A stretch of 64,000 nt of DNA from a virus (lineage: Duplodnaviria; Caudoviricetes): positions 32,001-96,000 of IMG/VR virus record IMGVR_UViG_2863283106_000001, one strand, 5' to 3'. Shown here piece after piece: positions 2,474 to 28,340 of the stretch (positions within the stretch are counted from its first letter, which is position 1; the number at the start of each line of letters is the position of its first letter). The notes beneath the pieces are model-generated. The model did no database searches, had not been told where the DNA came from, and saw only the letters and a list, made by a program, of their open reading frames with translations. The translations under genes and the position numbers were made by a program.

Positions 2474-2585
2474 TGGGGTGCTCTCCCTGATGCTGGGGTG
2501 CGGTTGACGTGCGTCGCTCGCCCGGCCAGCACCGGGACGCCTCAACGCGAGGCGGTATGGAAGAGGGAGAGGGGTGTTAACGTCG

Positions 2586-4653: not shown

Positions 4654-4712
4654 GGCGGGGAACCTCCGGCGGTCGACAGTGGGCCGCCGGGCACCGTGCC
4701 GTTCGCGTCTGC

Positions 4713-4922
4713 CTAGTGTCCTGTTCTGGGCGCCGACTGTTGCGGGTGCGCCTCAGCCTGGGAACGGGCTGCATTCCAGCCCCGGGTCCAGTAGCGGTAT
4801 CCGAACCGCTGTTCCTTGTCGCCGATGCGGTCGTACGGGCAGGCGTCGGAGGGGTCCCCCGCGGCGTATGCGGCCTTGCCCTCGTTGAATCGGACCAGGT
4901 AGGCCTGGCGGTCGAGCTGCAC
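4713..4922 (-). CDS. Rmf/CrpP-like small protein
   Basis: EGKAAYAAG..CPY..YWTRGW follows the ribosome modulation factor pattern G..A...G...CPY...W..GW; AAGGAG RBS. Confidence 0.6.
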   Translation of the reverse strand: MQLDRQAYLVRFNEGKAAYAAGDPSDACPYDRIGDKEQRFGYRYWTRGWNAARSQAEAHPQQSAPRTGH

Positions 4923-5558: not shown

Positions 5559-5669
5559 AGTGCGGAGGATGACGAGCGCGACGGCTTGTGTCCCGGGCAG
5601 TGCTCCCTGCGCACCGCACCCGCCACCCCAACCAAGATCATTCTTGCCCAATTGGGCAAGTCTCCGGGA

Positions 5670-5939
5670 TCAGTTCTCCGGAACGCGGGTCCTCTTCAGC
5701 ACCTCCCCGCTCGTCTCGATGACGTTGGTGAACGTCTGCAGCACCGCAAGGACGGACGCGGTGTCATCCCCGGCCACGGTCTTGACGGGGCCGGTCGGGG
5801 ACAGGGAGACAGACTCGCCCAGGTGGAGCTCCACCAGGGCCGCAGCCCGGTACGACCCGATCACCGGGCGGGCGGCCCGCCCGGTGATCTGCACTGTGTA
5901 GGTCGCACCGTCGTCGAACGAGCCGGTGACGGTGAGCAC
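5670..5939 (-). CDS. Hypothetical protein
   Basis: GGAGGA RBS directly after the giant gene's stop codon. Confidence 0.6.
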   Translation of the reverse strand: MLTVTGSFDDGATYTVQITGRAARPVIGSYRAAALVELHLGESVSLSPTGPVKTVAGDDTASVLAVLQTFTNVIETSGEVLKRTRVPEN

Positions 5940-5950
5940 GGCCTTCCTCC

Positions 5951-8900
5951 TTACCTCGTGGCCATCAGGCCCAGGAGGAACGCCCGCAGGTCGTCGTCCT
6001 GGTACCAGTCGCCGTTGAACATCGCCTGAACGGACCGGGCGAGACTGTCACCGGTGTCCGGTTGCGTCTGCTGCCGGCGCAGGAGCCGGTCCAGGGCGCT
6101 CGACCGCATACGGCGGGCGCCCGGCCGGCCCGTGTGGGTCCGGGTGAACCAGAACGCCCGCTGCGCCGCGTCCAGGTCCCCGATGTGCCGGGCGAGGTGC
6201 TGCGCCAGACCGTGCCCAGCGGTGCTCAGCCCCTCGTCGGCCAGGTCGGCGACCGTGATGCGCTGCCCGCTCGGCTCGTAGCGGCCCTCGTCGCCGTCCA
6301 CGGCCGTCACGCCGCGCACCGCGCCGGTGGCGAGCCACGACCGGGGAAGGACGCGCTGCACGCCCCGCACGGCCCGCTCGGCGTCCGGGGTGCTGTCCGG
6401 GCCGAACACGATGCCGGCGCTGCCGTCGGGGCCGACGTCGCGGATTTCGGCCAGGGCCGCGGCCACGGCGTCGGGCACCGCGGCCGCGTACCGGGCACGC
6501 AGGTCCGCGTACTCCCGGCGGGCGGTCGACAGCTCCATGCGGGCCGCGTCGATCTCGATCTCGAGGTCGGGGTCATCCGGGATGGTCGCGCTGCTACGGG
6601 CCGCCTGCAGGTTGACCAGACGCCGCTCGCTGGTGGCGACGTAGTCGTCGGCGTGCTGCAGCGTGACGTGCGGGTCGTCCCCGAAGTCGTCCCCGAGGAC
6701 CGCGGCCAGGCGGCGGGTGACGTCCTGGTCGACGTCGCCGCCGGCCGCCCGCAGGGCCGCCATGTGGCGAAGCGCGGCCAGGCCGGGGCCGCCGTCGGCC
6801 GCCCGGTCCGGCGCCCACTGGATCCGGTCCGACATCCCCGGGAGGCGGCCCGCGGCGAGCTGCCCCCACGTCGTCGGCCGCCAGAGGGTGACCCGGCGCT
6901 GCGCCTGCCCGAACCGGCCCGGCTCCGGCATCAGACCGGCCCAGTGGGAGATCCGGCCGGCGAGCGAGCCACCGTCCGTGTCAGGCAGGTTCACCGCACG
7001 GTGCAGGCGGGCCAGTCGCCGGGACTCCGGCCACTGCCTCACCCGGCGGACCAGGCGCCCGAGGAATGCCCGCAGGCGGCGCAGACGCTCACGCGCCGAC
7101 CGGTACTTCTCGGCGATCTTCCGGGCGCCGGCCTTCACCAGCAGTGCCAGGCGCTTGGCCAGGCGGATGAGGAAGGCGACGATCCGGGCGAGGAGGCCCG
7201 GCTGCCGGGCGGCCTCCGGGGACGCTGCGGCAATCCGGCGGGCGATCCGGCGGGCGGTGGCCTGCCGGGATCCGTCGAGCTGCCGGGTGACGATACGGGC
7301 GATCCGCTCGGCGTCGCCCGGGTCGACGCCGGCGGCCTGGAGTTGCTGCAGGAGCGCGTTCATCGCGTCGTCGACGTGCCCCGTGACCGCCCGCGCGACG
7401 TCGGGGTCGGCATCCGGGTCCGTTGCCGTGCGCGCGTCGGCGACTTGGCCGGGGATGAGGCGCAGGAGGTCCCGGGCGCGGGCCGCCAGGTCCTCGTTGC
7501 TCTCGCCGGGGAGCGGCTCGAGGTCGTTGATGGTGCGCAGGGCCGCCCGCACGGTGTCCGTGTGGGCCTGTTCCCGGGTGTCACGGAGGGTCTGCTGTGC
7601 GGCGTCTCGGTCGCTGCCGGTGATGCCCGCGGCGTCGAGGGCATCGGCGCCGTCACGGCTGGTTTCGTCCCGGACGTTGCGCAGAGCCTCGGGGGTGAGG
7701 CGCTGGGCGATCTGCTCGCGCAGGGCGTGGATGTCTCCGGGCGGCTCCGTGCCCGCGACAGCTTCGCCGATGATGCGGGCGGCGAGGCTGCGGGCCTGGT
7801 CGCTGGCGATCCGGTCGGTGCTGGACTGCGGGGTCGGGTTGGGGTCGCGGAGCTCTCCGACTGGCGGGAGGGCCGGGGTGGGCCGGTTCCGGTCGTAGAC
7901 GTTCACGGCGCGGCCGGCGTGCAGGCCGAAGTCGTGGACGTTGCCGTCCTCGTCCATGCCGGTGAGCTGCATCCACCATCCGTTGCGGTGGGGTGCGCTG
8001 ATGATCGTCAGGCGACGGTGGCCGTTGAACTGGTAGCCGGCCCGGCTGACGGGGGCGTCAATGACGTCACCGGCGCGGAGGTTGCCGGGGCGGACCTGGG
8101 CGATGGGCACGGACGGCTCGTCGGGGACGGCCGCGGCCGGGGCGTTCCCGGTGTCCGGGCCGGAGGGGTCGGTGTCGTCGTCTCCGTCGGTGGTGTCGGC
8201 GTCCGGGGCGGGGGCGCCCGCCGCGGGGGCCGGGCCGGGGGCCGGGGTGCTCGGCGCCGCGGAGGCCGGGGTGCTCGGCGCCGCGGAGGCCGAAGGCTCG
8301 TCACCCATGTCCGGGGTGACCACCAGGCGATCCCGGTTCCCCACGAACCACTCCACGGCCCGCCGCGGCCGGCCAGCGACCAGCACGGTCTCGGCGAGGA
8401 GACCGCCCAACAGCTCATAGCGGACCGTGGCGGTCGGGCCGCCGGCGATCCCCACGAGCTCCACCGTCACCCATCGGCCGCTCACATCGACGGCCTCAAT
8501 ACGGCGCGTGTACCAGCCCCCGTCCGAATGGCCGTTACCCACCACCAGGTGCTGCCCCGGCTGGAGCTTCGAGGCCTGCACCGCCATGGTGCCCTCCTGG
8601 TCCAGGGCCCGGCCCGGCCCGTCCGCGGCGGGAGTCTCCACCACCTCGAAGCCTTCGCTGCTGCCTACGGTGGCGCTCATGAACCTCCCGTCATGGCCGA
8701 CGAGACGGAGCTGAACCGTCCTGCGATCCTCGCTGCGCTGCGCCTCAGCCACCAGCATCCGGCGCTGTTCGCCGTTGACGGGCACGCTCACCACTTCACC
8801 GATACTGAGGTAGCGGGCCTCAACCCTCATGCGCGGCGCGCTGTCCTCCCCCTGGCCGTCACCCTGAGCGGGCGGCTCCGGAGGTGCAGGGTGCGCTTCG

Positions 8901-11900
8901 GGAAGCTGCCACACAGGCATCGCCCCATGCACGATCCGGCGCCGCCACACCTGGTTTTCGTCCTCCAAGAGCAGGCTGCGCACGCCGCCGGGGGCGTCCT
9001 CGATGTCGATGACGCGGAAGATGCCCAACCGGTCGCCGTTGCGCTCGTCCGGCATGGCGATCAGGTCGCCCTCGCCGAGCTGCGCCACGTTCGACGGGCG
9101 GGGCCGGTCAAAGCCCGCGGGCGGGGTCCGGCCGGCGGCCTGGTCCAGGTGGTCGGCGGCGCGCAGGGCCGCGCGGCCCTCAGGGGTCGCCGGGTCGGCG
9201 GACTGGCGCAGTTGCGTAGCGAGTGCGGCGGCCTGCTCCGGGGTGACGGGGAGGTCCGCGGCGATACGGGCGGCGGCCTGCTGCGCGTCCGGGTTGTCGT
9301 CCGGGCCGCTGGCGTGGTCGTCGATGACGCCCCGGTCACCTTCGGTGAGGTCCGGGTCGATGGTGGTTCCGGTCACCGGATCCACGGGGCGGGGCGGCTC
9401 GTGCACGGTCAGGTCCTCGGGCTCGTCCGGCGCGTCGTCCGGGCCCAGCTCGGGGGCGTTGCCGTTCTCTCCCTTCGCGCGCGGCAGGATCGCCGCGGCG
9501 TCCATGTCGATCTCGCCTACCTCACCGGTGGTGGTGTCGGCGTACTCGACCGTGACCCGGTCGCCGTCCCGGCGGGTGCCGGTGACCGCCACCGTGGCGA
9601 GCGCGCCATCGCGGTCCAGGATGATGACGTCTCCTTCCTTGAGGTCGGCGGCCGCCGGGTGGTCGATGTCCGTCACGGGGGCCGTGCCGGGGGCGGTGTC
9701 GCTGACTTCGCCCGTGACACGCAGATCGCCGGCGCTACGCGTGGTGGTGCCCTGCGCGGTGCTGACGGTGACCTTGTCGCCTTCCACCTCGTCGACGGGC
9801 CCGAGGAGCGCGCCGTCGGTGTCGGTGACGACGTGCCCGGGGCGCACCTGGTGGCCGTCGGACGTCCAGCCGTCGGGGCGGGCGCTGTCGGTGACGGCGA
9901 GCGTGGTCGGGCTGATGCCGTCCTCGGTGTCGTCGTCGTCCCAGCGCACGGACACGGTGGTATCGGTGGCGCCGGTGACGGTGCCTTCCTGGGTACGGAT
10001 GCCCCGCACGCCGGTAACGGCGCTTCCCGGGAAGAGGGCACGGCCGTTGCGGTCGGACGGGACCCGCTCGGGCATGTTGCCGGTCTGCACCGCGCTCTGG
10101 GCGCCGGTGGCCGGGGAGCCGGGCGTGACGTCGTCCGGGGCTTCGGCGCGCGCCGCGGTGGCGTTGAGCGTCGTGTAGACGTTGCCGCCCGCACCGGTGC
10201 CGTCGGGGTTCTCGGTGACCCAGGTGCGCCACTCCTGGGTGGTGCGGCCGCGGCGGGTCACGTCGACGAGCTCGGGCCCCTTGTAGACGTACCCGGCGCG
10301 CTGGAGCGGCTTGCCCTTCCTGGTGGTGCCGTCCATGCGGACCATGTCGCCGGGCACCAGGTCCTCGACGCGGGCCCAGTGGGCGGGCTGTCCACCGACC
10401 GGGGCCGGCTCCCCCTCCGGCTCCGGCTTCCTCGACCCGTCGGCGGGGTCCGCGGGGCTCGGGGTGCTGCCGTCCGTGGCCGGCGTGGTCGACGACGCGT
10501 CGGTGCTACCCGGCTGGTCGTAGGTGTGCGGCCGCTCGCGGCTGCTGTCCGGGGCGAAGCCGTCAAGGAGACGACCGGCCCAGGCCGCGCGGGCGTCGAG
10601 GTCAAAGAGCGCTTCGGGCTGTCCGCCCTCTTCGCTGTCGGCCAGTACGGTGCGCAGCCACGCGAAGTCATCGCGTGCCTGCACCAGGTCGTCCCGCAGA
10701 TCTCCGCTGGGGGAGCGTCCGTCGCGGAAGGCGTCCACCATCGCGGCGAGCCGGTCGTACCGGGCGCGGGCCTCCGGGATGTCTCGGAGGGACTCCGGGA
10801 GCTCCGGCAGGGTCCGGTCCGTGCCCGCCAGGCGCAGCATGACCGAGTCCCACACGTCCTCGCCCGGGTTGGCCGGGTCCGCGGGGCCATCCTGCATTGC
10901 CTGCACGACCAGGTTGGCAACGGCCAGGTTCCGGTCCCGGGTGCGGCTGGCGCGGTCGTTGCCCAGGCCGAAGAAGGGCCGGGCGTCCCAGACCGGGTCC
11001 GTACCGGGGGCTGCGGAATGGATGGAGACGGTGCCGATCCGGCGCCCGTCCAGCCATACGGCCTGTGCGCCGCCGTCCCCGTCCGGGCGCAGCTCCGCAC
11101 GGTCGGCGAACGCGTCGGCTCGGTCAGCACTTCCGTATCGGAGCACAGCGTCGTCGATGTTCTCGGCGCGCTGGGGATCGAACGGCCGGGCGGGGGCGAC
11201 GTCGTCAGCCGTGAGGGGCTGCGGGGTGTCCGTCTCTGCGGACCCGGCGCGCTGCTCCTCCTCGTACTGGTGCCGTGCGATGCGGTCGTTCTCGCGGCGC
11301 TGCTGCTTCCACTGGTTGAAGGTGACGCGGCCGCCGTTGAGGTCGTACCACTCCACCAGTTCTTCGCTGGCGTACTCCCTCCACCGGTCACCCGCGGACA
11401 GGCTGCCGCCGGAGAACAGTTCCGTCTCGTTGGGCTTGTCCGCGCTGTACTTGTACTTCTGCTTGTAGAAGTAGCCGTTCGTGAACTCGATCGCGGCTCG
11501 GTGGCGGGCCTCGTTCCAGTCGGCGAACTCGAGGTGCAGCGCACGGTCGGCTTCCCGCTGCCGGTACTGCGAGTACGTGAGCCGGCCATTGCCCGCAGTG
11601 GTCTCGTCACCGAACAGCCAGAGGTTCAGCTCCGGCGAGGCCAGTTCCTTCGCCCGCTTGTTGCTGTACTTGCGGCCGGAGAACACCTCGCGGGGGTCGA
11701 CGCCGGCGGCCTCAGCCTCCGGCGAGAGGAACCGGCCGCCGGTGGCCTCCATCGCGGCCTGGAAACGCTCCTCATCGAGGGCGTCGAACTCCCGGCGCAG
11801 GTTCCCTGGGGTGGCCGGAGCGGGCTGGGTGACGTCCGTGTCCCCGAAGCCGAGAGCCGCGTCCATGGCCTTGCCTTCGCGCTCGGCCTCTTCGGCGTTC

Positions 11901-14900: not shown

Positions 14901-17900
14901 TACGGCAGATCAGGGTTGTCGAACTCCTCCTTGAGCCACGCGGTCTCGCCGACGAGGCGGCGAAGGTCGGCCTGCAGGTCCTCGCTACCGTCCTCAACGC
15001 GCTCGAGCAGGTCCTGGAGGCGCTGTATGCGGTCCTGGTCGTCGATCCCTTCGGAGTGGTTCCGCAGGGTGAGAATGTCGTCGTGGATGTCGCGCATGCG
15101 GGCGCGCAGCTCGTGGTGCCACGCCGGGGTCGGCTCCGGCCGTGTGCGGTCGCTGGCCCACGCGAACGTGTCGTCGGGACCGCGCAGGAACAGCGGGCTT
15201 CCCCACGCATACGAACCGTCGGAGTTGACGAACGACACGGTGGTCGTGCCGTCGTCCCTGCGCTCCACGCGGGTGACACGGACCGGCGCGTTCCAGCCCT
15301 CGGGATACGGGCGGCCATCTCGGTCCTTCCGCATGCGTGGCACGCGGATGATGTCGTTCTCGGCGACGTCTTCGCGGTCTCCGAGAACCCAGCCGTCGGG
15401 GGTCTCACTGCGTGCGGCGTCGTTCCGCGCGAGTTCTTCCTCCTGCTCGCGGCGGAAGTCGACCAGGTGGACGAGGCCAGCCACGGCATCGGCCTTGGAC
15501 TTGAGGAGGGGGCCGCTGCTGGTGCCGTCAACGTGCGTGTACGACCACTTGCTGCCCAGCTTCTCAACCGTGCCGATCTGCTCACCGTCAAGAGACACCG
15601 GTGAACTACCGTCGGCGGCCTTCTTGCCTACCACGGCACGAGCCAGAGCGTCGGCCTTCTCCCGGGCCTTCTGCGCGTCCTGCTCCTCCCGTATACGGAC
15701 GGCCTGACGCTGGTTCTGCGCCTCGAGTAGCGCACCGCGGCGGTTGCCGATCCTCGACACCGTGGGGGACAGATCGCTGCGGGGCACGCGCGGGCCTTCG
15801 CCGCTCGGCACGACGTGCCGCTGCCGCCACGCTTCCAGAGCCTCCAGTTCCGCCGCGATCTCGTCGTCGCTCATCGCAATCGGCGGTGTGTCGCCGATCG
15901 GCGCCAGCGGAATCTCCTCGGCGCCTGCAGAGTCGTCGGTGTTGGACTGCTCGGGGCGCTGCAGAGCGTCCCACTGCTCCGGGGTGAACTTCTCCACCAG
16001 GTCGCCCGGCGCAAGGTAGCCGTACTCGACCCGGTTGTCGCCTTCCCACTGCTGGGCTTCCTCGTTCCAGAGCATCCGCTCAAGGCGAATGGCCGTCTCG
16101 CCCGTCTCGTGGTCCTTCGGGGTGCCCATCGACAGGTCGTGGAAGATGCCGCGGTAGGTGTGGACCTGGTTCCGTGTGTCCATCGGCTCAGTGCCCTGGA
16201 AACTGATCAGGTCGCCGTCCCGCAGGTCCGACGGGTGGTAGAGCGTGCCGCCGTTGGGGCCTTCGCCCCGAGGCTGCGGGGTCCGCTCCGGGAGTGCGGA
16301 CATGGCCTGGTCGATGACGGCGTCCATGTCCTGCAGCTCTGCGCGCACGGACCGCGTCTGTTCGAGGTCCGGCAGCTCGGCCTCATACCGGTCGAGAGCC
16401 TCAGCGGTCTCTGCGATACGGACGCGGGCCCTGCGCAGGTCCTCGCGGTTGTCGCCGGTCGGCGGGTTCCCCGACAGGATGCCGTCGAGGTGGGCCGCAG
16501 CGTGCTCGTAAGGGCGGCGGATCTGCAGGAGTATTTCCCGCTTCCCCATGTGCCGGATGTGGTCGCCCGGGTCCGGGGGCAGCGGGGGCAGCGCGGGCAA
16601 CCGGTCGCGCAGGGTGCGGGCGATCGACGTCTCGTCGCCATCGTCGTCACTGGTGGCGGCGGGTTCGGAGCTGTCACCACCGTTACCGGTACTGCCAGCA
16701 TCGGTGTTGTCGCTGCTGTCGTTGTCGTCCTGCCCACCGGTCGGCTCGGGGCGGATCTGATTGAGGGTTTCCTGAACCTCCTGCCGCGGGATGCGGACCG
16801 CACCCCCCTGCTGCGGCGGGACGAATTGGCCGCTGTTCAGGGCCGCGTCCAGTTCCTCGGGGCTGGCCACGTCCAGGCGCGGCTGGTCCTGCCCGTTGCG
16901 GCGCACGACACGGCTTGCGGTGATCGGCGCGGTGCGGCCGTCCTCCGTGCGGACGCGCAGCTCCACGCCGTCGATCGCGGAGACGGTCCCCGCGAGGACG
17001 CTCTCCCCGTCCTCAGACCAGAAGGTGACGCGGTCGCCAGCCTGGAAGTCGCTGATCTTCCAGTCCCGGGTGTAGTCGCCGTCAGGCTCCTCCATGGGGT
17101 CGTCGCCCCGGGTGGCGTCCATGACCCACCCCAGGGACCCCATGTCGAGGACGTCCGTCGCGCGGGTGACCGCGACGTACGCCAGGCGCAGCTCCTCGTC
17201 TCCGGGGATGGTGTCCCAGTCGATACCTCCCTCGGGTGTCTCCTTCGGGGTGAAGAAGTCACTGGCGATGCGGACGCGCTCGGACTCCAAGCCCTTGGCC
17301 TTGTGGGCGGTCGAGACGAGGAGATCGTGCGGGGCGGCCTGGTCGACGACCTGCCCGCCGCTGCTGCTGGGCGGGGCGGTGTACCGGTCGGCGATGTACT
17401 GCTCGACCTTCTGCAGGATCCGGGCGCGCTCGTCCTCGGGGACGTAATCGCCCTTCCTCGGCGGCGGGTACCCCCACCGCTTGCTGACGCCGTCCCAGCC
17501 GAAGCCCTGGCGCTTGAGCCATTCCTTCGTGGTCTCGAAGTTGCTGTCGCCGAAAGCGAGCTTGACCCACATGTGCTCGCCGTCGTCTTCCACCAGCGGC
17601 CGCGGCATGCGCACCGCGTTCAGGAGCGCCTCGAGGTCTTCGCTGTGGCGCTCCATCAGCTTGAACATGCTGTCGAGCTGCTTGAGGTTCTTGTCGCCCG
17701 CGACCTCTTCGCGGATGTCTTCCCAGGCCATGCCGTTGAACTGGGCCAGGTCCTGGTGCTTGGTGCGCTTGCCGTCCCGGAGCGCCTCGGCTGCTTCCAG
17801 GAACTTCCGCAGGTCGTTGAGGCCTCCGGAGACGGCAACCCTCCGACCGGCCTGTAGTCCTTCCACGGCGCCGAGAACGACGCCGGCGTTGGTGCGGGCG

Positions 17901-20900
17901 ATGAGCATGGTTTCGTCGCCCGGGTTGATCTCCCCGATGTGGGAGTTCTTGCGGTCCCAGCCCTTGAGGCGCATCCGGGAGCCGACCAGCCGCAGGAACC
18001 GGTTACCGGCGTCGGCGACAGCGTCACCGAAGCGGAACGTCTGGGTGAGGGTGGCCGTGGCGTCTGCGGGGAGCCGCCCCAGGGCGTCCGTGGCGCCCCG
18101 GAAGCCGTAGATGGCCTGGTTGGAGTCACCGACCGCGACGACCTGGATGCCGGCGGCGCGGATGTTGCGGACGATGCCCTCCATGACCGGGTTCACGTCC
18201 TGCGCTTCGTCCCAGAACAGAACATCGGTGTCCGGCACCCTGCGGGACAGTGCCCACATCTTGACGGGGTGGTCGAACGACAGGGGCAGGTCGCGGTCCT
18301 TGTTCTTCGCCTTCGGGTCGGTGAGGTTGGCCCACATCTGCTCGGCGAGCGGCTTGACCGCCGCGAACACGGCCGCCCGGTTGCGGAGCTCCTCGGGCAG
18401 GTGGTGCTCGGCGAAGTCGTCGTCGTCGGACTTGACCCACGCGGAGAGCAGTTCGTTGGCGTAGTGTGCGGCCCGGCGCGGGGACAGCGAGTCGCCGCCG
18501 GCCTGGATCGGCTCGTACCAGCGCATGCGGTCGGCGAGCTGCTGATCGTTGAGGCGCGGCCACTTCAACCGCTCGAGCAGGTCCTTGTCGACCATGCTGT
18601 TCGCGTACGCGTTGGCCGTGGTCGGGGTGAGATTCTTCCCGTATTCGCCGCGCTGCTGCGACTCGATCGCCTCATCGGCCACGGACCGGTTGAACGCCAG
18701 GTACAGGATCCGCTTGTTCGGCATGCGCCGGGACAGCATCTTGAGCGTCGTGGACTTGCCGGTGCCAGCGAGCGCCATGACACGCATGTCCAGGCCGCGG
18801 CGGGCGGCGCCCTCGATGATGACCCGCTGCTCGTCGGTGGGCGGGTACGCCTCGCCGGCGGACGCCTGGGCCTCGATCCGCTCCCAGTCGGCGTCCGAGT
18901 AGCCTCCGGGCTTCGCGGGCGGCAGCTCGTCCACGCTGGAAACGGCGCCGCGGGCCTCGTCCTGGTTCAGGCCGTACCCGCCGACGCGGTCGAGGAGGAT
19001 GCTGCCGCGGGACGGCTCGACCAGCTTGCCGTCCTTGTCGTACTCCGGTTCCCGCTCCCAGCGGTCGGCTTCCTCCCGCTGCAGCGCCCACAGCCGGCGC
19101 TCAGCGCGCAGCCGGTACGCCAGTTCCAGCGGGTCGGTGGACTCCTCCAGGGCGCGGGTGACGTCCTCCAGGCCGTCGACCTCGTTCTCGATCTCCTCGG
19201 CGCTCATGTCGGCCGGTTCGCGGTCGCCGATCGGGTCGGTGCTGCCCGCCTCGCCCTCCGGCTGCGGGGCTGGCGGCTGGTTCACAGTGCCCGCGGCGGG
19301 GGTGTCGCTCTCCGGGGTCTCCGGAGCGCTGTTCTCCGGCGCCTCGGGCGCGTCCGTGGCCGGGGCGTCACCTTCGGGGGCCTCCGGCGCGTCCGTGTCC
19401 GGCACCTCGGGCGCGGCCTCGTCCGGGTACAGCACCCGCACCTCGACATCGGACGGGAGCAGGTGCTCCTTGCCGTCTTCGTCGACGACCAGGACGCGAC
19501 CGCGACCGGTGAGCACGGGCTTCCGCGCCACGGTGCGCGCGCGGCCTCCGCTGTCCAGGAACCGGTCCCCGGACTCCAGGTCCATGGGCGCGCGAAGCTG
19601 TGCCTCCCGGAGGTTGGTGGTGTCGCGTCCCTCGGCGTCCGCGAACATGTCGGGGGTGCCGAACTCGTCGGCGGCCCGGTCGTCGGGGTTGTTCAGGTCC
19701 GCGGCCCTGTTCGGCCCGGTGTTGGCCGGCTGGTCGACGTCGAACAGGCCGCCCGGCTCCTCCACGGGCTGCTTCGGCTTCGGCTTCGGTTCCTGCTTCG
19801 GCTTGCGGCCGGCGCGGCGGGCCTCCTCCGCCTCGAGGACCTGCATGCGGGTGCGGTCGGCGCCAGACAGCTCCCCGGCCATGTCCCGCTCCATCAGGGC
19901 GACGATCTCTTCGCGGATCTCCGGGTCCGTCATGGTGGACGGGGCCTTGGAGCCTTCCGGGCGTATCGCGTCGAGCTGTTCGGACACCTCGTCGGGCGAC
20001 ATGCTGACGGTGCCGTCACCATCACCGCCGTCACCACTGCCGTCGGCGTCATCGGTGCCGTCGGCGTCATCGGTGCCGTCGGCGTCATCGGTGCCGTCGG
20101 CGTCCGGCGCCTGCGTGTCCTTCTCTCTCTGCGCGCGGCGTTCCCGCAGTTCAGCCGCAGCCTGGTCAACGCGCTTGGTGTAGGTGTTGTACGCCCGAAC
20201 CTCATCCGGGTCGGACTCCAGGCCCTCGCCGCCCGCCATCGTCCACGCCCACTCGAGGAGAGCGCGGTGGACCTCGACCGGCCCGGTCACCCTGAGCGTG
20301 CCGTTGCGGCCCTTCTTGGCCTCCTTGAGGGCCTTCCGGGTGTCCGGGTCCTCCATCGCCGCGGTCTCTTCCGTGCTGAGGAAGTCGGCGAGGGCCTCCG
20401 GCATGGTCAGGGTGATGAAGTCCTCGGGCTTGTCCCACGCGTAGCGCAGTGGCTCATCCGCCGGCTCCGAGTTGTTGCGGTTGTTGTCGCTCTCGCGGCG
20501 CGCGAGTTCGGCCTCGACGTCGGTCAGGCGCTGCTTACGGATCTTGGTGATCTCGTCGGTCTCGTATGACGGGCGAGCGCTGGCGAGCTCAGCCCGCTCG
20601 GCATTGAGCTGCTCGGTGTCGAGATCGGCGACCGGCGGCCGCGCCTGCAGTTCCTGCGCGCGCTGCTGTGCCTGTGCCGCGGTCTCCTTCTTCCGCCTGG
20701 CCTCCCGGATCGCTCGGGCGTCGGCTTCGAACCGGTCGGCGTTGGCGTCGAGGCGGTCATCGAGCTGCAGCAGTGCCCGCTGCAGGTCTTGGTCGAGACT
20801 CTCGGTGTCCAGGCCCTCGAGGGCGGCAAGAGCGCCACGCATCGCGTCCGCGTTCTGCTGGTAGCCCTCGGGGCCCTTCGGGGCGTCCGTAACGTTCTGC

Positions 20901-23119
20901 ATGTGCTGGGCCAGGGCGCGGAACTCCTCCGGCGCCCCGTCCGGCCACTGCCGCTCGGCGAGCTCGTTGACCTTGCCCCAGTCGCTGATGACATCCCTGG
21001 CCGCGACCCTGGCATCACCAACGGCGGGATGCGCCTGCATACGGGCACCGCTGTCGCGCTGCACGTCTTCCAGACGCCGGCGGGACCTGGGGACGACGGA
21101 CAGCATGTCGCCGGGGCGCGCGCCGAACTGATCGATCTCCTCGCGGCCGCCGAGGCTGCGGGTGGTGAAGGTGCGGCCGCCCTCGTACCGGTCCACGCGG
21201 GTGACGACGTGCCCGAACATGCCACGTGCCACGACGTCACCAACGCGCACACGGTCGGCGCGGACTTCCTCGGGGGTGAAACCGTCGGTGTTCCCGGACA
21301 CCTGCACCTGCGTCGGCATCCGCAGAACGCGGGCGGTGTCGCCAGACACGATCACCTTGCCGTCCGGGCCCGTCAGCGTGACGTCCACCAGGGGCGCGCC
21401 GGTCGTTCCCGGGCCGGGCGAGTAGGTCGAGGCGATAGTGCCCTCGACGGTGACCGTTCCCGGCTTGGGCATGCTGCGGGTGCTGTCCGGCCACTCGATG
21501 TCACGGCCGTTGATGGTGACGGTGACGCGGTCGCCGTGCTTGAGGCTGTCGCGGCTGACCGTCTCTGGGGTGTCGCTGCTGGACGCGTCGGTGTTTCCTT
21601 CGCCGGTGCCCGCAGCCGGGTCGTTCTGCGTTCCGGGAGCGTTCTCGTTCTGGCCAGGCTGGTTCTGTGCGCGCTTGTTGGCCTGGGAAGCGTCAGCGTC
21701 TGCCTGGGCTTTGGCGATGGCCGCCTTGCCCGTGCCCTCGGTGTGGGACGTGTAGCTTCCGGGAGTGCTCCAGTCGAGCGGCTGCCCGTCATCACCGCGC
21801 ACGGCCTCGAGGTCGCGGGCCGCCGCCATGCCCGAAGGCTTTGAAGCGAAGCCGTGAGCGACCAGCAGGGACGTGCCGGTGTGGTGAAGGTCCCACACGT
21901 TTCCTCGCCGGACGAGGACGAAGTGCCCGGCGGGGGAGAGCTGGGCGCGGGGGAGCTTGCGGGCGGCGGTCTCTCCGTTCTTCGCCTGGATCCTGCGGGA
22001 GCGTTCGCTGTCGTCTCCTTCTCGAACCGGGTCGGGTCCGTTCTCCCAGTGCTTGCGGACAGCGTTGATGGTGGCGAAGCGGCGCTCACCGCCTGGAGCG
22101 TCGGTCTTCGGCTTCTTGGGTGCTGTGGTCTTCTTCGCCGTGGGCCGGGGGGTGGTGTCGAACTCTGTACGGGCCCGGGTGATGGCGGCCTGGATGTTCT
22201 CGCCCTTGGTGGAGCGCCAGGAGCCGGCGGCCCGGTCGAGGTCGGGGTTGGAGAAGTCGAACCCGCCGGGTGTCGCGGTGTCGGCGGTGGTCTGGGCGAG
22301 GTGGTCGGCGAACCGGGAGGCTTCCTGCGGGGAGTCGAAGTCGCCGGCGGCGTCCATGCGCTGACCGGTGCCGGTGGCCGTCAGGTACCAGCGGCCGCTG
22401 GAGTCGTCGCGGAGGATTGCCAGGCCGCCGGTGCGGTTGGTCACCAGGTCGTCGTCTTCGGCGACGGACCGCAGGAACCGGTCCATGTCCGGCCCTGTGT
22501 CGGGTCGTGCGGCGAGCTGGTGGAAGTGCTGGCGGACGGCTGCGACGTCCTTGAATCGGGAGCCTTTCTCGTGCCGCTTGTTCGGCAGGGCGTCGGTGTT
22601 GAGGGGGTGTCGGCCGTCGGCCGGCTCGTCCTCGTCGTCATCGTCGTCCGGGCCGTCGCCGTCATCGTCGCCGATGGGGCGGCCCTGGTCGTCGACGTCG
22701 TGCGGGTCGTTCGGGGTGTCCGGGTCGCCGTCGTCGTCCCGGGCCAGGCCGTTGCCGCGGCGCGGGTCCTTGCGGCGCTTCTCGTCCTCCGCCGCGACCT
22801 TGTCCTGGTCCTCGGTGGGCGCGGTGCCGTCGGGGCGGGTGACCATTGACACCCACTTGGCGCTGGTGGTGTGTCGGCGGCCGCGGAATTCGTTCGGGCC
22901 GCTCTGGTCCTGGACGAGGATGCGGTCATGCGGGAGTGCTCGGACGACGCGCGCGAGCTTGCCGCCCCACAGGCGGACAGTGCCGCCGGTCTCGATGAAC
23001 CTGCCCTTGCTGTCGCGCGGGTGCAGGGCGGGGTTCCACTTACGGCGGGCGGCCTTGACCTCGAGGGCGTCACTCAGGGCCTGCAACTCAGCGTGCGCAG
23101 CAGCGGGGCGATTCAGCAT
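5951..23119 (-). CDS. Giant (~5,720 aa) polyvalent protein with SF1 UvrD-like helicase, repeated domains and a degenerate zincin-like C-terminus
   Basis: 17-kb ORF. Helicase motifs PTDEQ, ALAGTGKST, WDEAQD, VGDSNQAIYGFRGA, TFRFG, STAHKAKGLE, LAYVAVTRA at about 17150-18850. N-terminal WNPALHPRDSKGRF. Start placed at 23119 from the promoter spacing; the ORF extends to 23131. Confidence 0.85.
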   Translation of the reverse strand: MLNRPAAAHAELQALSDALEVKAARRKWNPALHPRDSKGRFIETGGTVRLWGGKLARVVRALPHDRILVQDQSGPNEFRGRRHTTSAKWVSMVTRPDGTAPTEDQDKVAAEDEKRRKDPRRGNGLARDDDGDPDTPNDPHDVDDQGRPIGDDDGDGPDDDDDEDEPADGRHPLNTDALPNKRHEKGSRFKDVAAVRQHFHQLAARPDTGPDMDRFLRSVAEDDDLVTNRTGGLAILRDDSSGRWYLTATGTGQRMDAAGDFDSPQEASRFADHLAQTTADTATPGGFDFSNPDLDRAAGSWRSTKGENIQAAITRARTEFDTTPRPTAKKTTAPKKPKTDAPGGERRFATINAVRKHWENGPDPVREGDDSERSRRIQAKNGETAARKLPRAQLSPAGHFVLVRRGNVWDLHHTGTSLLVAHGFASKPSGMAAARDLEAVRGDDGQPLDWSTPGSYTSHTEGTGKAAIAKAQADADASQANKRAQNQPGQNENAPGTQNDPAAGTGEGNTDASSSDTPETVSRDSLKHGDRVTVTINGRDIEWPDSTRSMPKPGTVTVEGTIASTYSPGPGTTGAPLVDVTLTGPDGKVIVSGDTARVLRMPTQVQVSGNTDGFTPEEVRADRVRVGDVVARGMFGHVVTRVDRYEGGRTFTTRSLGGREEIDQFGARPGDMLSVVPRSRRRLEDVQRDSGARMQAHPAVGDARVAARDVISDWGKVNELAERQWPDGAPEEFRALAQHMQNVTDAPKGPEGYQQNADAMRGALAALEGLDTESLDQDLQRALLQLDDRLDANADRFEADARAIREARRKKETAAQAQQRAQELQARPPVADLDTEQLNAERAELASARPSYETDEITKIRKQRLTDVEAELARRESDNNRNNSEPADEPLRYAWDKPEDFITLTMPEALADFLSTEETAAMEDPDTRKALKEAKKGRNGTLRVTGPVEVHRALLEWAWTMAGGEGLESDPDEVRAYNTYTKRVDQAAAELRERRAQREKDTQAPDADGTDDADGTDDADGTDDADGSGDGGDGDGTVSMSPDEVSEQLDAIRPEGSKAPSTMTDPEIREEIVALMERDMAGELSGADRTRMQVLEAEEARRAGRKPKQEPKPKPKQPVEEPGGLFDVDQPANTGPNRAADLNNPDDRAADEFGTPDMFADAEGRDTTNLREAQLRAPMDLESGDRFLDSGGRARTVARKPVLTGRGRVLVVDEDGKEHLLPSDVEVRVLYPDEAAPEVPDTDAPEAPEGDAPATDAPEAPENSAPETPESDTPAAGTVNQPPAPQPEGEAGSTDPIGDREPADMSAEEIENEVDGLEDVTRALEESTDPLELAYRLRAERRLWALQREEADRWEREPEYDKDGKLVEPSRGSILLDRVGGYGLNQDEARGAVSSVDELPPAKPGGYSDADWERIEAQASAGEAYPPTDEQRVIIEGAARRGLDMRVMALAGTGKSTTLKMLSRRMPNKRILYLAFNRSVADEAIESQQRGEYGKNLTPTTANAYANSMVDKDLLERLKWPRLNDQQLADRMRWYEPIQAGGDSLSPRRAAHYANELLSAWVKSDDDDFAEHHLPEELRNRAAVFAAVKPLAEQMWANLTDPKAKNKDRDLPLSFDHPVKMWALSRRVPDTDVLFWDEAQDVNPVMEGIVRNIRAAGIQVVAVGDSNQAIYGFRGATDALGRLPADATATLTQTFRFGDAVADAGNRFLRLVGSRMRLKGWDRKNSHIGEINPGDETMLIARTNAGVVLGAVEGLQAGRRVAVSGGLNDLRKFLEAAEALRDGKRTKHQDLAQFNGMAWEDIREEVAGDKNLKQLDSMFKLMERHSEDLEALLNAVRMPRPLVEDDGEHMWVKLAFGDSNFETTKEWLKRQGFGWDGVSKRWGYPPPRKGDYVPEDERARILQKVEQYIADRYTAPPSSSGGQVVDQAAPHDLLVSTAHKAKGLESERVRIASDFFTPKETPEGGIDWDTIPGDEELRLAYVAVTRATDVLDMGSLGWVMDATRGDDPMEEPDGDYTRDWKISDFQAGDRVTFWSEDGESVLAGTVSAIDGVELRVRTEDGRTAPITASRVVRRNGQDQPRLDVASPEELDAALNSGQFVPPQQGGAVRIPRQEVQETLNQIRPEPTGGQDDNDSSDNTDAGSTGNGGDSSEPAATSDDDGDETSIARTLRDRLPALPPLPPDPGDHIRHMGKREILLQIRRPYEHAAAHLDGILSGNPPTGDNREDLRRARVRIAETAEALDRYEAELPDLEQTRSVRAELQDMDAVIDQAMSALPERTPQPRGEGPNGGTLYHPSDLRDGDLISFQGTEPMDTRNQVHTYRGIFHDLSMGTPKDHETGETAIRLERMLWNEEAQQWEGDNRVEYGYLAPGDLVEKFTPEQWDALQRPEQSNTDDSAGAEEIPLAPIGDTPPIAMSDDEIAAELEALEAWRQRHVVPSGEGPRVPRSDLSPTVSRIGNRRGALLEAQNQRQAVRIREEQDAQKAREKADALARAVVGKKAADGSSPVSLDGEQIGTVEKLGSKWSYTHVDGTSSGPLLKSKADAVAGLVHLVDFRREQEEELARNDAARSETPDGWVLGDREDVAENDIIRVPRMRKDRDGRPYPEGWNAPVRVTRVERRDDGTTTVSFVNSDGSYAWGSPLFLRGPDDTFAWASDRTRPEPTPAWHHELRARMRDIHDDILTLRNHSEGIDDQDRIQRLQDLLERVEDGSEDLQADLRRLVGETAWLKEEFDNPDLPYETRRYRSWASAAHNKARRALEHPDFQQGSTDPVQDDEFAAVRQRYDGDMVPASEIRLGDWVHTVSADPAYNEPMHMVGRVIGVTPVLSNGQVRIEVEADVTLNGTDTVRAEFAMIRATDLVERLPEGNPGREDSSDLARRIEADHGRRRAAKVRVPEGWQAVDGSQIQPRPGDRFRIVARRGGGSGPNSGPEHMNITVERPAQRDGYWRVKNQPLSFRPSDIVAIPDGSDARGRDDDAPESGKPNTDGPGNAPVLGGQAAAAPDAGPRRFSSVDEVRDRWKRGDLDPAPHADMVLPSHKHGMRSTDADTDTLELSEGGRLAVLQVSEDIGPVWSVVAPGSMAVIARAYNRDDALAQARILEGVRDTDGNLFPWDAPDAAERALTFRGPDGESLGTVVAQRMVSQGGDEGVHSFWQKEARRYLDSKRELSNYYDEWRTRQEADGYTIPLNPLDTQAGDEITVLHAYPGPYDSGPRTAGITNRARLEDSARPDPLGQGAMFPFLVDSHWSVRTEESPEFTDEQADKTGRALIRSLRFRSTADRPEAFRRPRPGERDAASQDGDDRAARAQALFGEGLNAVGGESLPEMQELRDRLDRADDADDRDAELRDIADRMDALAEQYELAGPQGEHAADRFRLASRAARGERDQDNEQQNSQDEEQQNQNTPENEGEQDNDNEQQDQDNEEDNQRRRDSDLDGGAADPDGEPDGGGADAPGDGGDSGDNGDGPDNADGGEDGPDDGNDDQEEDEGKRRRRRRRRNRDGGNGGPNGGGPGGPGLPHMNMPESDTPSGEGDEGDGRTPARHRDVDSLRSAWKAGDGLTPAEDTPERRAHLAELADREGLALSPEGGLAMWPEQQDDGSTVWRFAQARNGTNLPGIALTSDNPEEASELTARFEDLTDRNGDLFDWNQPWGPAAVAAWRDGEGRNLPQALRAVQEDYERERASAFVLPEDLTTLDDAELEAAYLRGLGPKDELRVMAEMDRRDGYVDEKVRAAMGDTPPANAEEAEREGKAMDAALGFGDTDVTQPAPATPGNLRREFDALDEERFQAAMEATGGRFLSPEAEAAGVDPREVFSGRKYSNKRAKELASPELNLWLFGDETTAGNGRLTYSQYRQREADRALHLEFADWNEARHRAAIEFTNGYFYKQKYKYSADKPNETELFSGGSLSAGDRWREYASEELVEWYDLNGGRVTFNQWKQQRRENDRIARHQYEEEQRAGSAETDTPQPLTADDVAPARPFDPQRAENIDDAVLRYGSADRADAFADRAELRPDGDGGAQAVWLDGRRIGTVSIHSAAPGTDPVWDARPFFGLGNDRASRTRDRNLAVANLVVQAMQDGPADPANPGEDVWDSVMLRLAGTDRTLPELPESLRDIPEARARYDRLAAMVDAFRDGRSPSGDLRDDLVQARDDFAWLRTVLADSEEGGQPEALFDLDARAAWAGRLLDGFAPDSSRERPHTYDQPGSTDASSTTPATDGSTPSPADPADGSRKPEPEGEPAPVGGQPAHWARVEDLVPGDMVRMDGTTRKGKPLQRAGYVYKGPELVDVTRRGRTTQEWRTWVTENPDGTGAGGNVYTTLNATAARAEAPDDVTPGSPATGAQSAVQTGNMPERVPSDRNGRALFPGSAVTGVRGIRTQEGTVTGATDTTVSVRWDDDDTEDGISPTTLAVTDSARPDGWTSDGHQVRPGHVVTDTDGALLGPVDEVEGDKVTVSTAQGTTTRSAGDLRVTGEVSDTAPGTAPVTDIDHPAAADLKEGDVIILDRDGALATVAVTGTRRDGDRVTVEYADTTTGEVGEIDMDAAAILPRAKGENGNAPELGPDDAPDEPEDLTVHEPPRPVDPVTGTTIDPDLTEGDRGVIDDHASGPDDNPDAQQAAARIAADLPVTPEQAAALATQLRQSADPATPEGRAALRAADHLDQAAGRTPPAGFDRPRPSNVAQLGEGDLIAMPDERNGDRLGIFRVIDIEDAPGGVRSLLLEDENQVWRRRIVHGAMPVWQLPEAHPAPPEPPAQGDGQGEDSAPRMRVEARYLSIGEVVSVPVNGEQRRMLVAEAQRSEDRRTVQLRLVGHDGRFMSATVGSSEGFEVVETPAADGPGRALDQEGTMAVQASKLQPGQHLVVGNGHSDGGWYTRRIEAVDVSGRWVTVELVGIAGGPTATVRYELLGGLLAETVLVAGRPRRAVEWFVGNRDRLVVTPDMGDEPSASAAPSTPASAAPSTPAPGPAPAAGAPAPDADTTDGDDDTDPSGPDTGNAPAAAVPDEPSVPIAQVRPGNLRAGDVIDAPVSRAGYQFNGHRRLTIISAPHRNGWWMQLTGMDEDGNVHDFGLHAGRAVNVYDRNRPTPALPPVGELRDPNPTPQSSTDRIASDQARSLAARIIGEAVAGTEPPGDIHALREQIAQRLTPEALRNVRDETSRDGADALDAAGITGSDRDAAQQTLRDTREQAHTDTVRAALRTINDLEPLPGESNEDLAARARDLLRLIPGQVADARTATDPDADPDVARAVTGHVDDAMNALLQQLQAAGVDPGDAERIARIVTRQLDGSRQATARRIARRIAAASPEAARQPGLLARIVAFLIRLAKRLALLVKAGARKIAEKYRSARERLRRLRAFLGRLVRRVRQWPESRRLARLHRAVNLPDTDGGSLAGRISHWAGLMPEPGRFGQAQRRVTLWRPTTWGQLAAGRLPGMSDRIQWAPDRAADGGPGLAALRHMAALRAAGGDVDQDVTRRLAAVLGDDFGDDPHVTLQHADDYVATSERRLVNLQAARSSATIPDDPDLEIEIDAARMELSTARREYADLRARYAAAVPDAVAAALAEIRDVGPDGSAGIVFGPDSTPDAERAVRGVQRVLPRSWLATGAVRGVTAVDGDEGRYEPSGQRITVADLADEGLSTAGHGLAQHLARHIGDLDAAQRAFWFTRTHTGRPGARRMRSSALDRLLRRQQTQPDTGDSLARSVQAMFNGDWYQDDDLRAFLLGLMATR
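20039..20105 (-). repeat. 18-bp tandem repeat encoding (ADGTDD)n, plus a 24-bp duplication (ASAAPSTP x2) near 8240-8290
   Basis: GCCGTCGGCGTCATCGGT occurs three times plus a partial copy. Confidence 0.8.
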
Positions 23120-23157
23120 GCCGCGGACCATGCACAGTGCAGGTGGTTAGCGTCGCG
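23120..23157 (-). promoter_or_regulatory. Class-A promoter (representative of about 14 copies)
   Basis: CGCGACGCTAA-N14-CATGGT-N7-ATG; near-identical geometry at 26623-26660. Confidence 0.7.
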
Positions 23158-23191
23158 CCCTGGCGTGCGGGCGCGACACCACGGCGGCGGC

Positions 23192-23437
23192 CTACATCGT
23201 TTCGGTCAGGATGTGGAAGAGGAACCAGACGGCGCCGCCGGCGACAGTCACCGTGAACAGGGCCCTTCCGGTTTTCGAGGTGCGGGTGCGGAAGGCTCTG
23301 CGGGTGGTCTCGCTGAGGGTGTCGTCGTCCTGCTTGTTCACCAGAGTGACCGTCTCGTAGATCACGAAGAACGCGGCCCACGTTCCCCAGAGGATGCGGC
23401 TGGTGTGGCGGCGGAGGAATTGCACGGCAGTCTTCAC
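23192..23437 (-). CDS. Small two-TM membrane protein
   Basis: GTGA overlap with the nuclease gene, AAGGAG RBS, two hydrophobic helices. Confidence 0.6.
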   Translation of the reverse strand: MKTAVQFLRRHTSRILWGTWAAFFVIYETVTLVNKQDDDTLSETTRRAFRTRTSKTGRALFTVTVAGGAVWFLFHILTETM

Positions 23438-23793
23438 GGGGACTCCTTGGCGGCGGGGACGGGGCGGGGACCGGTGCCGTCGTAGGGAGCGGCGTGACCG
23501 GCGTCGAGGAGGGCGCTGTTCAGGGATGCGCCGTCGGCGGCCGTGATCGTGGCGAGCCAGCGGCCGTATTTCTCTTTGTGGTGGGTCCGCACCACCAGGC
23601 CCGGGGCGTGCTGGGTGAACCAGTCGGCGGCCCACGCCTTGGCGGCCTTGCCCTCGGGGGTGTTCTTCTCCGGCGTGTTCAGCCCGAGGAGGCGGACGCG
23701 CTGGCGGGTGCTGATCCCGAAGCCGAGGTCGATGTTCAGGTCGTAGGTGTCGGCGTCGACCAGGTGCTGGAGCGTGGCGGGGTAGATGTTCAC
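23434..23793 (-). CDS. Thermonuclease (SNase-like), no signal peptide
   Basis: VDADT, RVRLLGLNTPE, KYGRWLA, LNSALLDAGHA. Confidence 0.88.
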   Translation of the reverse strand: MNIYPATLQHLVDADTYDLNIDLGFGISTRQRVRLLGLNTPEKNTPEGKAAKAWAADWFTQHAPGLVVRTHHKEKYGRWLATITAADGASLNSALLDAGHAAPYDGTGPRPVPAAKESP

Positions 23794-28325: not shown

Positions 28326-28340
28326 GCGCCCCAGTCTTTC

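Follow-up and report, generated by a model that had tools for sequence, protein, structure and literature searches.

The window analysed here is a stretch of 64,000 nucleotides, corresponding to positions 32001-96000 of one 112,518-bp virus contig (Caudoviricetes; IMG/VR record IMGVR_UViG_2863283106_000001). It contains a giant gene on the minus strand, at 5951..23131 (coordinates are those of the window), which is a single uninterrupted frame of 5,726 codons. The encoded giant protein has 5,726 amino acids (aa), 624 kDa, an isoelectric point (pI) of 4.8, a net charge of about -325 and 0 cysteine residues. The G+C content of the open reading frame (ORF) by codon position is 0.74/0.51/0.90 and that of the third position (GC3) stays at 0.85-0.94 in each 500-codon block, which is the codon pattern of real genes in the surrounding 70% GC sequence. 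The ORF is real, and its coding-type GC3 of about 0.9 holds along its whole length. An earlier reading of the stretch, made from its letters alone and called here the sequence-only reading, had placed the upper end of the gene at 23119. This is the second methionine codon on the minus strand; the relatives begin with MVRGMLNRP, four codons upstream, which moves the start to 23131. No clear Shine-Dalgarno sequence is seen ahead of either methionine codon, and a 9-bp G+C-rich inverted repeat (minus strand, about 23150-23180; stem GTCGCGCCC / GGGCGCGAC, 8-base loop) lies 20-50 bases upstream of the gene start. An antisense frame of 2,642 aa at 6062..13990 on the plus strand was rejected as a gene: its GC content by codon position (0.90/0.53/0.77) is highest at position 1, so that it is regarded as a shadow of the high-GC coding strand.

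Among isolated viruses the closest is Streptomyces phage Gilgamesh (129 kb), which infects S. lividans and in which the orthologous gene likewise stands between the portal gene and the protease and capsid genes. The gene order on the minus strand of the window is a tyrosine integrase (32709..33863), a portal protein of 827 aa with a C-terminal MuF domain (23795..26278), an SNase-like nuclease of 119 aa (23434..23793; phrog_452, 4e-28), a small ORF of 81 aa (23192..23437), the giant gene, an ORF of 238 aa without family match (4935..5651), a prohead serine protease (Peptidase_S78) fused to a NUDIX hydrolase (651 aa; 2698..4653) and a major capsid protein of the HK97 type (454 aa; 1181..2545). 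The gene had been described as embedded between portal and protease, and the order bears this out. The Phage_Mu_F match at the portal C-terminus (E 1.6e-6) scores 29.2 bits against a Pfam gathering cut-off of 29.6, and matches to phrog_859 and phrog_2468 accompany it. In the capsid protein, a leader of some 200 aa precedes the HK97 domain. The 81-aa ORF contains two hydrophobic stretches (by eye) and has the place and size of Gilgamesh gp47, annotated as 'membrane protein'; the SNase-like gene, between the portal-MuF and giant genes, overlaps it by a GTGA stop/start, and no gene is annotated at the corresponding position in Gilgamesh. The Gilgamesh orthologue of the protease-NUDIX fusion is annotated only as 'hydrolase'. 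Since prohead proteases act inside the procapsid, the NUDIX part may be head-borne too.

Just outside the window, the same strand carries a head-to-tail region and a full siphovirus tail, with a tail tube (PF25681, 2.4e-36), a tape measure of 1,352 aa, Dit-like and minor tail proteins and a fibre of 1,314 aa. A second, small MuF-like protein, a minor capsid protein of 179 aa with Phage_Mu_F, also lies outside the window. The large terminase is at 45537..47333, and the contig further encodes an HNH endonuclease, a small terminase and an endolysin, while ParB-like, Gam-like, DnaC-like (loader), RusA and FtsK-like genes are located elsewhere on it. This refutes the idea that the giant protein stands in for a tail in DNA delivery: a contig with a whole siphovirus tail, an endolysin and the two subunits of the terminase is that of a complete tailed phage.

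The position of the gene is constant. A portal-MuF homologue precedes the gene in all 46 Gilgamesh-like loci found in IMG/VR. The orthologue in Gilgamesh is gp48 (MN234216; 4,624 aa, 'hypothetical protein'), which has the same neighbours; its identity to the giant protein is 70% at the N-terminus and 81% in the last 726 aa. It lacks the helicase described below, as well as copy 2 and the region of copy 3 of a repeated domain (domain X), and has about 500 other residues at the helicase position. A wider set of 108 relatives, of 3.2-7.2 thousand aa, has conserved blocks at the positions of aa 1-330, 1050-1250, 3550-3950, 4250-4750 and 5000-5726, with variable sequence between them; the helicase block is covered in 23 of the 108. 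The enzyme content was tallied from precomputed Pfam annotations of these relatives: 11 have UvrD only, 40 have only a set of SNF2 and PF28553-5 (accessions that the local Pfam copy lacks), both kinds occur in 12, and 45 show no recognisable enzyme. One relative, P0057, combines N6_Mtase, SNF2 and Helicase_C. As judged from these sequences, the family shows a fixed frame in which the end-pieces are kept and the enzyme modules are swapped.

The second common feature is the exclusion of cysteine. In addition to the giant protein (0/5,726), 90 of the 108 relatives have none, and together they hold 26 in 546,545 residues. The mean of the other called ORFs of the contig is 0.92%. The tape measure (0/1,352), the tail tube (0/277) and the capsid protein (0/454) are also free of cysteine, whereas the non-virion enzymes of the same phage (terminase, methyltransferase, ligase and others) contain 1-3.8%. 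The embedded helicase has therefore the make-up of a virion protein, not that of the phage cytoplasmic enzymes. A cysteine-free make-up suits a particle in oxidising extracellular surroundings and a chain that passes unfolded, and is silent on location inside or outside the head. In this phage group, cysteine content may separate virion from non-virion proteins, and near-total exclusion, even in embedded helicases and methylases, could be a marker of virion-borne or ejected proteins that is readable from sequence only.

Phage polyvalent proteins were described as likely packaged by Iyer, Burroughs, Anand, de Souza and Aravind in 2017 (PMC5512222). The portions of that work drawn on here cite the packaged P1 DarB and N4 virion RNA polymerase, and report actinomycete giants with UvrD and SNF2 whose prototype is OJH72069.1 (12,242 aa) of a Streptomyces viridifaciens plasmid. 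The giant protein joins several unrelated domains in one chain (helicase, four copies of domain X, SH3-like units, FSG repeats and a putative zincin relic), and its head-gene context is kept in Gilgamesh and at the 46 loci. It is accordingly of the polyvalent class by architecture and context, while it is not a DarB, not a MuF protein and not an active zincin. The sequence-only reading had proposed a polyvalent, capsid-loaded cargo. Comparison among the relatives lends this support through the invariable slot after portal-MuF, the replacement of UvrD by SNF2 and N6-methylase, and a freedom from cysteine like that of virion proteins. The favoured reading, with a probability of about 0.6, is that a temperate, Gilgamesh-like siphovirus of Streptomyces packages this polyvalent protein in its capsid and ejects it as cargo. 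Packaging and injection are probable, with gene context and the lack of cysteine as indirect supports.

The N-terminal piece (aa 1-110; 22802..23131) is basic, with a pI of 11, and consists of a start tag followed by a small conserved stretch (aa 51-110). The tag, W-N-P-x-L-H-P-R-D-x-K-G-R-F-I-E-T-G-G in the alignment, spans aa 32-50 (22982..23038, minus strand) and reads here W32-N-P-A-L-H-P-R-D-S-K-G-R-F-I-E-T-G-G50. The N-terminal HPRDSKGRF motif noticed earlier stands at aa 37-45. The pattern HP[RK]...G[RK][FWY] has a single match in the six frames of the 112.5-kb contig, the tag of the giant protein. In 28 aligned tag sequences L36, H37, P38, R39, D40, K42, G43, R44 and G50 (a glycine six after R44) are invariant. 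Of the 108 relatives, 94 have the tag, without exception inside the first 60 aa; among 122 further proteins with domain X it is found in 30, each time at aa 21-52.

A scan of IMG/VR for the tag gave 54 loci, of which 46 are the Gilgamesh-like ones and eight are distant. Five distant loci (L085, L086, L088, L089 and L091) have a tagged ORF that continues past the end of the locus, with 949 aa in L091 and 1,690-1,725 aa in the other four; here the distance of the tag from the first start codon is 6-29 residues. The upstream genes were scanned for L085, L088 and L089, where the tagged ORF follows a phrog_776 portal directly or after MuF-like and protease-like genes. At L090 the tblastn match of the tag crosses a stop codon; given the likeness to L089, the tag is taken to head the next ORF (5043..7487). 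At L084 the tag is 263 aa past the first possible start of the ORF directly after the portal, and at L087 it begins a 149-aa ORF between portal and capsid genes. Gordonia phage Phendrix has the tag at aa 28-36 of gp66 (1,479 aa), encoded directly after the portal gene. Elsewhere, tagged proteins carry an ADP-ribosyltransferase exoenzyme, a PI3/PI4-kinase-like, a Rho_N or a 2H phosphoesterase domain. In one protein, P0258, the tag comes 57 aa after a MuF domain; because MuF and tag are joined there in one chain, the portal-MuF followed by tag-cargo in the window looks like a split form of a MuF-tag-cargo arrangement. A tblastn search with aa 1-120 against the phage collection matched only Gilgamesh and, weakly, Phendrix and GodonK; a word-based search for the tag among shorter proteins gave only fragments of close relatives, and a literature search found no relevant paper containing the tag strings.

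It is a tentative idea, held with rather low confidence, that W-x-P-x-L-H-P-R-D-x-K-G-R-F is a general address of actinobacterial phages, either for head loading or for processing by the head protease. A docking peptide and a site cut by a protease both fit the facts on the tag. If the idea were true, tag bearers would be taken into the procapsid beside the portal/MuF vertex and later ejected. This would explain both the presence of one tag on unrelated giants (helicase, methylase, ADP-ribosyltransferase and kinase-like cargo) across lineages with different portal families and the avoidance of cysteine in the whole family. In that case domain X would represent a new fold devoted to packaged cargo. 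A 10-residue tag common to several phage lineages is in any case a possible loading or processing signal, and under that idea it would also be portable, able to bring proteins of choice into phage heads much as the T4 capsid-targeting sequence or encapsulin cargo peptides do.

The four copies of an unassigned domain that the sequence-only reading reported are confirmed by self-BLAST (E 1.8e-7 to 1.5e-4), with matches starting at aa 192, 351, 3013 and 3545. From self-BLAST and alignment, the copies of domain X span aa 190-335 (22127..22564), 349-480 (21692..22087), 3011-3150 (13682..14101) and 3543-3690 (12062..12505), all on the minus strand; the fourth is the most conserved and the one modelled. 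A hidden Markov model (HMM) built from the four copies found 44 additional ones in related loci. The AlphaFold model, made with a 47-copy alignment, has a predicted local distance difference test (pLDDT) score of 90.3 and a predicted template modelling (pTM) score of 0.81, and shows two helices, a three-stranded sheet and then three more helices. That the repeat is undescribed also holds for its structure, the confident model being without match in the PDB or BFVD: the best E value of Foldseek was 0.14 against the PDB and 0.015 against BFVD, the best Z score of VIA-align was 3.9 among 48,161 chains, and the sequence profile reached at best E 0.33 against the PDB.

Against 1.84 billion representative proteins, the profile of domain X matched 128 at E <= 1e-3 and 89 at E <= 1e-10, mostly of 2-7.9 thousand aa with several copies each. 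Of 30 mid-size proteins with the domain, only one gave a Pfam family at 1e-5, a DnaG-type primase domain (DnaG_N). The conserved positions R11, P27, A37, G48, A88, A92 and G125 do not look catalytic, which suggests a binding or packing domain. A 10,826-aa open frame of another Streptomyces genome (G005:C52, loci L035 and L036), in which domain X recurs with E 1.9e-9 and 2e-8, probably belongs to the plasmid-type giants described in the portions of Iyer et al. used here.

The helicase module occupies aa ~1430-2000 (17132..18844, minus strand) and is of the superfamily 1 (SF1) UvrD/FBH1-like type; within the family it is an optional insert. The earlier call of an intact SF1 helicase proved correct. 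Pfam gives UvrD-helicase (PF00580, 2.8e-13) and UvrD_C (PF13361, 1.1e-6), PHROG gives phrog_1967 (8e-69), and the motif strings GTGKS (1456), DEAQD (1641), VGDSNQ (1667), TFRFG (1698) and VAVTRA (1986) are present. The N- and C-terminal domains, Walker A, DExx, motif III and motif VI expected of UvrD/Rep/PcrA-type SF1 enzymes are thus all found. Among solved structures the closest relative is FBH1 (1.7e-23), ahead of UvrD (1.5e-5). To call the whole a helicase gene is correct as to the presence of the module here and overstates its role, since only 23 of the 108 relatives have it and Gilgamesh gp48 does not. No Pfam match to N6_Mtase, SNF2 or Helicase_C was found in five overlapping segments of the giant protein and no DarB-like PHROG was found; Phage_Mu_F is absent by Pfam, and the polyvalent hub domains (zincin-like MPTase, MuF, LPD) have no Pfam match at E <= 0.1. 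A phmmer search against the PDB returned nothing for aa 1-1366 or aa 2101-5000.

The remaining body of the protein is very acidic and is shown to consist of small domains joined by acidic linkers, with the enzyme modules inserted or exchanged. Several of the linkers are acidic and of low complexity, and one of them is strongly acidic with an arginine run (aa 3390-3542; net charge -34; 12506..12964). More than ten barrel-like 'L..GD.I/V' units had been counted. The pattern is real, since its strict form occurs 7 times against 0.33 expected (0/2000 shuffles), and the number falls short of the count; a relaxed form occurs 9 times against 1.6 expected and was reached by 1/2000 shuffles. An iterated HMM joins two units only, at aa 4676-4740 (8912..9106) and 5012-5076 (7904..8098), and four other sites appear at E 0.06-0.75 in a relaxed search. 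The model of one unit, the second, matches domain I of eIF5A and EF-P (model residues 8-82; Z 7.3-8.4; root-mean-square deviation, rmsd, 1.7-2.1 A over 56-62 residues), with a Foldseek probability of 1.0 at E 0.06-0.3; the modelled unit is, on this prediction, an SH3-like barrel of the eIF5A/EF-P domain I type. Of five helical units proposed, a regular expression recovers three, at 1067, 1309 and 2420. The two FSG units, on the other hand, were both recovered, at 3817 and 3906, as tandem repeats at aa 3778-3956 (11264..11800) in which 3778-3869 matches 3865-3956 with E 1.3e-5 in self-BLAST.

The best conserved part of the giant protein is a basic, mostly helical C-terminal module (aa 5091-5726; pI 9.3; 5954..7861, minus strand) with a long Arg/Lys-rich amphipathic stretch. 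It always forms the extreme C-terminus, in 103 of the 108 relatives and in 17 of the 122 further domain X proteins. The sequence-only reading saw in TAGHGLAQH a zincin that has lost HExxH. The family alignment places HExxH on HGLAQ (aa 5640-5644; 6200..6214), where the column reads HELGH or HEMGH in the short distant members P0153, P0134, P0209 and P0155, three of which also have a Glu on the following helix. Because these short relatives keep HExxH at the same column, the call is right for the motif and the family history; a zincin is shown by no fold or profile search. Among 120 aligned members, 3 have HExxH, to which P0155 adds a further case, 6 have HxxxH without the Glu and 111 have lost both the Glu and the second His. 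By this alignment the peptidase would be inactivated in the giant protein.

In the model, the relic region is a helix, three strands, a helix and a helix (pLDDT 57-70), with TAGHGLAQH (aa 5637-5645) on the second helix. A confident three-helix bundle stands within an otherwise weak model of the module. Profile searches of the module against the PDB gave only designed helical repeats (E >= 0.025), Foldseek gave none at E <= 1e-3, and VIA gave generic three-helix bundles at Z ~10, below the helical noise level; a VIA match to an ejectosome was discarded as meaningless (rmsd 19.5 A). In the ESM Atlas, scores of <= 0.85 provide leads only (Phage_min_cap2 14%, Peptidase_M90 20%). Pfam at E <= 10 on all 21 members of the module set gave no peptidase family. 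For the short HExxH relatives the best Pfam match was Zn_peptidase_2 at E 0.2, and the PDB profile gave nothing. The smallest complete members of the family, of about 1,500 aa, consist of tag, one domain X and C-terminal module with intact HExxH. The giants thus look as if a tagged peptidase protein of this size had been enlarged, its peptidase decaying as the cargo grew. The series from HExxH through HxxxH to HGLAQ bears on whether the giants are cut up after delivery.

If the giant protein is packaged cargo, the following course of events may be proposed. It would be made late, together with the head proteins, and its N-terminal tag would direct it into the procapsid near the portal-MuF vertex. 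In phage T4, a short N-terminal leader sends internal proteins and Alt into the prohead and is cut by the prohead protease. The tag could act in the same way as this capsid-targeting sequence, or as a docking peptide. T4 offers a model by analogy, with no sequence similarity and with the difference that the tag is sometimes internal. The protein would then be stored inside the head with the DNA and, at infection, would exit through portal and tail as an unfolded chain of small domains joined by linkers, the absence of cysteine avoiding disulfide cross-links in the extracellular virion. In the new host, the enzyme cargo might work on the genome as it enters, shielding it from restriction or nucleases, unwinding it or repairing it.

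Several observations weigh against this reading. A chain of 624 kDa would need to unfold completely to pass a siphovirus tail; as a precedent, the N4 virion RNA polymerase, of 3,500 aa and without sequence similarity to the giant protein, is an injected chain of several thousand residues. The helicase is the single active enzyme domain recognisable in this protein, and outside it no segment matches any Pfam or PHROG family, including MuF, LPD and internal virion proteins. The model of the C-terminal module is poor as a whole (pLDDT 58, pTM 0.27). The lack of cysteine would equally suit a surface-exposed virion protein. Finally, the tag is internal in P0264 (aa 1712 of 1,956), P0261 (222) and P0259 (103), and P0258 and P0256 carry two or three copies of it; since it is neither always N-terminal nor always single, it may be a general linear motif and not an address.

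One alternative makes the giant protein part of the structure or surface of the head (a decoration, an adhesin fibre, or an internal scaffold or core made of barrel strings), so that it stays with the particle and is no injected effector. The many small barrel-type units with long linkers would agree with it, an extracellular protein is expected to lack cysteine, no separate scaffold gene is recognised between portal and capsid, and neither gp48 nor 45 of the 108 relatives has a recognisable enzyme. However, neither a capsid surface nor a scaffold offers a substrate for a helicase, an SNF2 ATPase, a DNA methylase or the DnaG-type primase module found in one case. In HK97 the leader of the capsid protein acts as a scaffold, and by analogy the leader of about 200 aa seen here could do so. 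This alternative is considered unlikely. A role as intracellular replication or repair factor, a helicase with accessory domains working unpackaged in the infected cell or lysogen while its place among the head genes is incidental, is less likely again. It draws on the intact SF1 helicase as the sole confidently assigned active domain and on the existence of the element as a plasmid, which needs maintenance functions. The consulted part of Iyer et al. also places actinomycete UvrD giants in conjugation-like, not virion, contexts (PMC5512222). The helicase is, however, missing from 85 of the 108 relatives and from gp48 while the end-pieces are kept, the slot between portal-MuF and protease is never left in the 46 loci, the cysteine content is that of virion proteins and not of cytoplasmic enzymes, and the DnaC-like loader, ParB-like, Gam-like and RusA genes lie elsewhere on the contig.

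The least probable of the alternatives makes the giant protein an ejection conduit: its conserved, basic and amphipathic helices at the C-terminus, together with the end derived from the peptidase, would form a channel across the thick Gram-positive wall and the membrane or open one, and the enzymes would be passengers. The conservation and invariably terminal position of the C-terminal module, its basic and helical nature with an Arg/Lys-rich amphipathic stretch, and the intact HExxH peptidase of the short relatives are all in line with it. The authors of the work on Stx phage phi24B suggest such a role for the polyvalent gp47 in the part of their report used here (10.64898/2026.04.10.717836). 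Against it, the peptidase motif is destroyed in 111 of 120 members and Pfam detects no membrane or lytic domain in the C-terminal module or the rest of the protein. Moreover, the tape measure usually forms the conduit in siphoviruses, and this phage has one of 1,352 aa. A conduit is compatible with the packaged-cargo reading, as a sub-function of it.

Compared with the polyvalent proteins as presented in the consulted part of PMC5512222, the giant protein shares the many domains per chain, the gene near the portal-terminase head genes and the swapping of effectors between relatives, here a methylase-SNF2 dyad and a UvrD helicase; the zincin-type peptidase that recurs in the class may be represented by the putative relic. 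It differs in that the MuF, LPD and MPTase Pfam families are not detected, in that it is anchored by a short N-terminal tag while MuF is on the portal, and in that its putative zincin would be inactivated. In addition, that part of the source gives the UvrD actinomycete giants conjugation-like surroundings (PMC5512222); the gene studied here belongs to a phage head module. P1 DarB, too, is a large protein of the DNA-enzyme kind, regarded as a passenger of the head that protects the DNA as it enters, and relatives of the giant protein hold the same dyad of N6-methylase and SF2 helicase. The giant protein itself has neither methylase nor SF2 helicase and has an SF1 UvrD-type helicase instead, for which reason it is not a DarB; DarB has about 2,255 aa, less than half its size. 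Another polyvalent protein, gp47 of phi24B (2,811 aa), was found in virions by proteomics (bioRxiv preprint, 10.64898/2026.04.10.717836). It resembles the giant protein in being very large and multi-domain with a metallopeptidase-type domain, and is in the virions yet invisible in reconstructions. It belongs to an E. coli podovirus, has LPD1/5/38 and MuF-C domains that are absent here, and no sequence relation was seen.

Relative to the portions of these sources used, what appears new is the cross-lineage tag, the orphan fold of domain X, the exclusion of cysteine and the decay series of the peptidase. Phage-delivered polyvalent proteins are a recognised but almost untested class, and the present family is a natural experiment, with more than 100 orthologues that have fixed ends and exchangeable enzyme cargo. 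Gilgamesh, as an isolated phage that grows on a laboratory strain of Streptomyces, makes the predictions testable at the bench.

As to the element itself, a literature search found no paper on Streptomyces phage Gilgamesh, and among the literature matches listed none describes these Streptomyces phage-plasmid elements in its title or abstract. The C-terminal module matches no record of the phage collection besides Gilgamesh. In PLSDB it is found in 8 plasmids of 114-133 kb from complete Streptomyces genomes and, weakly, in a Thermobispora plasmid. The 108 relatives are mostly on contigs of 124-132 kb, and some are in chromosomes. From this occurrence on plasmids, on contigs of about 125-130 kb in many draft genomes and in chromosomes, the Gilgamesh-like elements look like phage-plasmids able to integrate. 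The 112.5-kb contig, being shorter than its 125-130 kb relatives, is probably incomplete; its start (contig positions 1-110, outside the window) falls within a direct repeat, about 50 bases in length and with many CCCGAGCAGTCGCAGGCCCC-type units.

The interval from the integrase to the head genes contains, at 27705-31168 on the minus strand, a cargo that is unusual for a phage: a D-Ala-D-Ala ligase (PF07478, 7.7e-36), a C39-like peptidase and an ATPase of the histidine-kinase-like, anti-sigma type. Near the large terminase, an FtsK/SpoIIIE-like ATPase (phrog_1358, 6e-28; 40963-43002, plus strand) and a second, weak integrase-like gene (44321-45334, minus strand) recall actinomycete conjugative elements.

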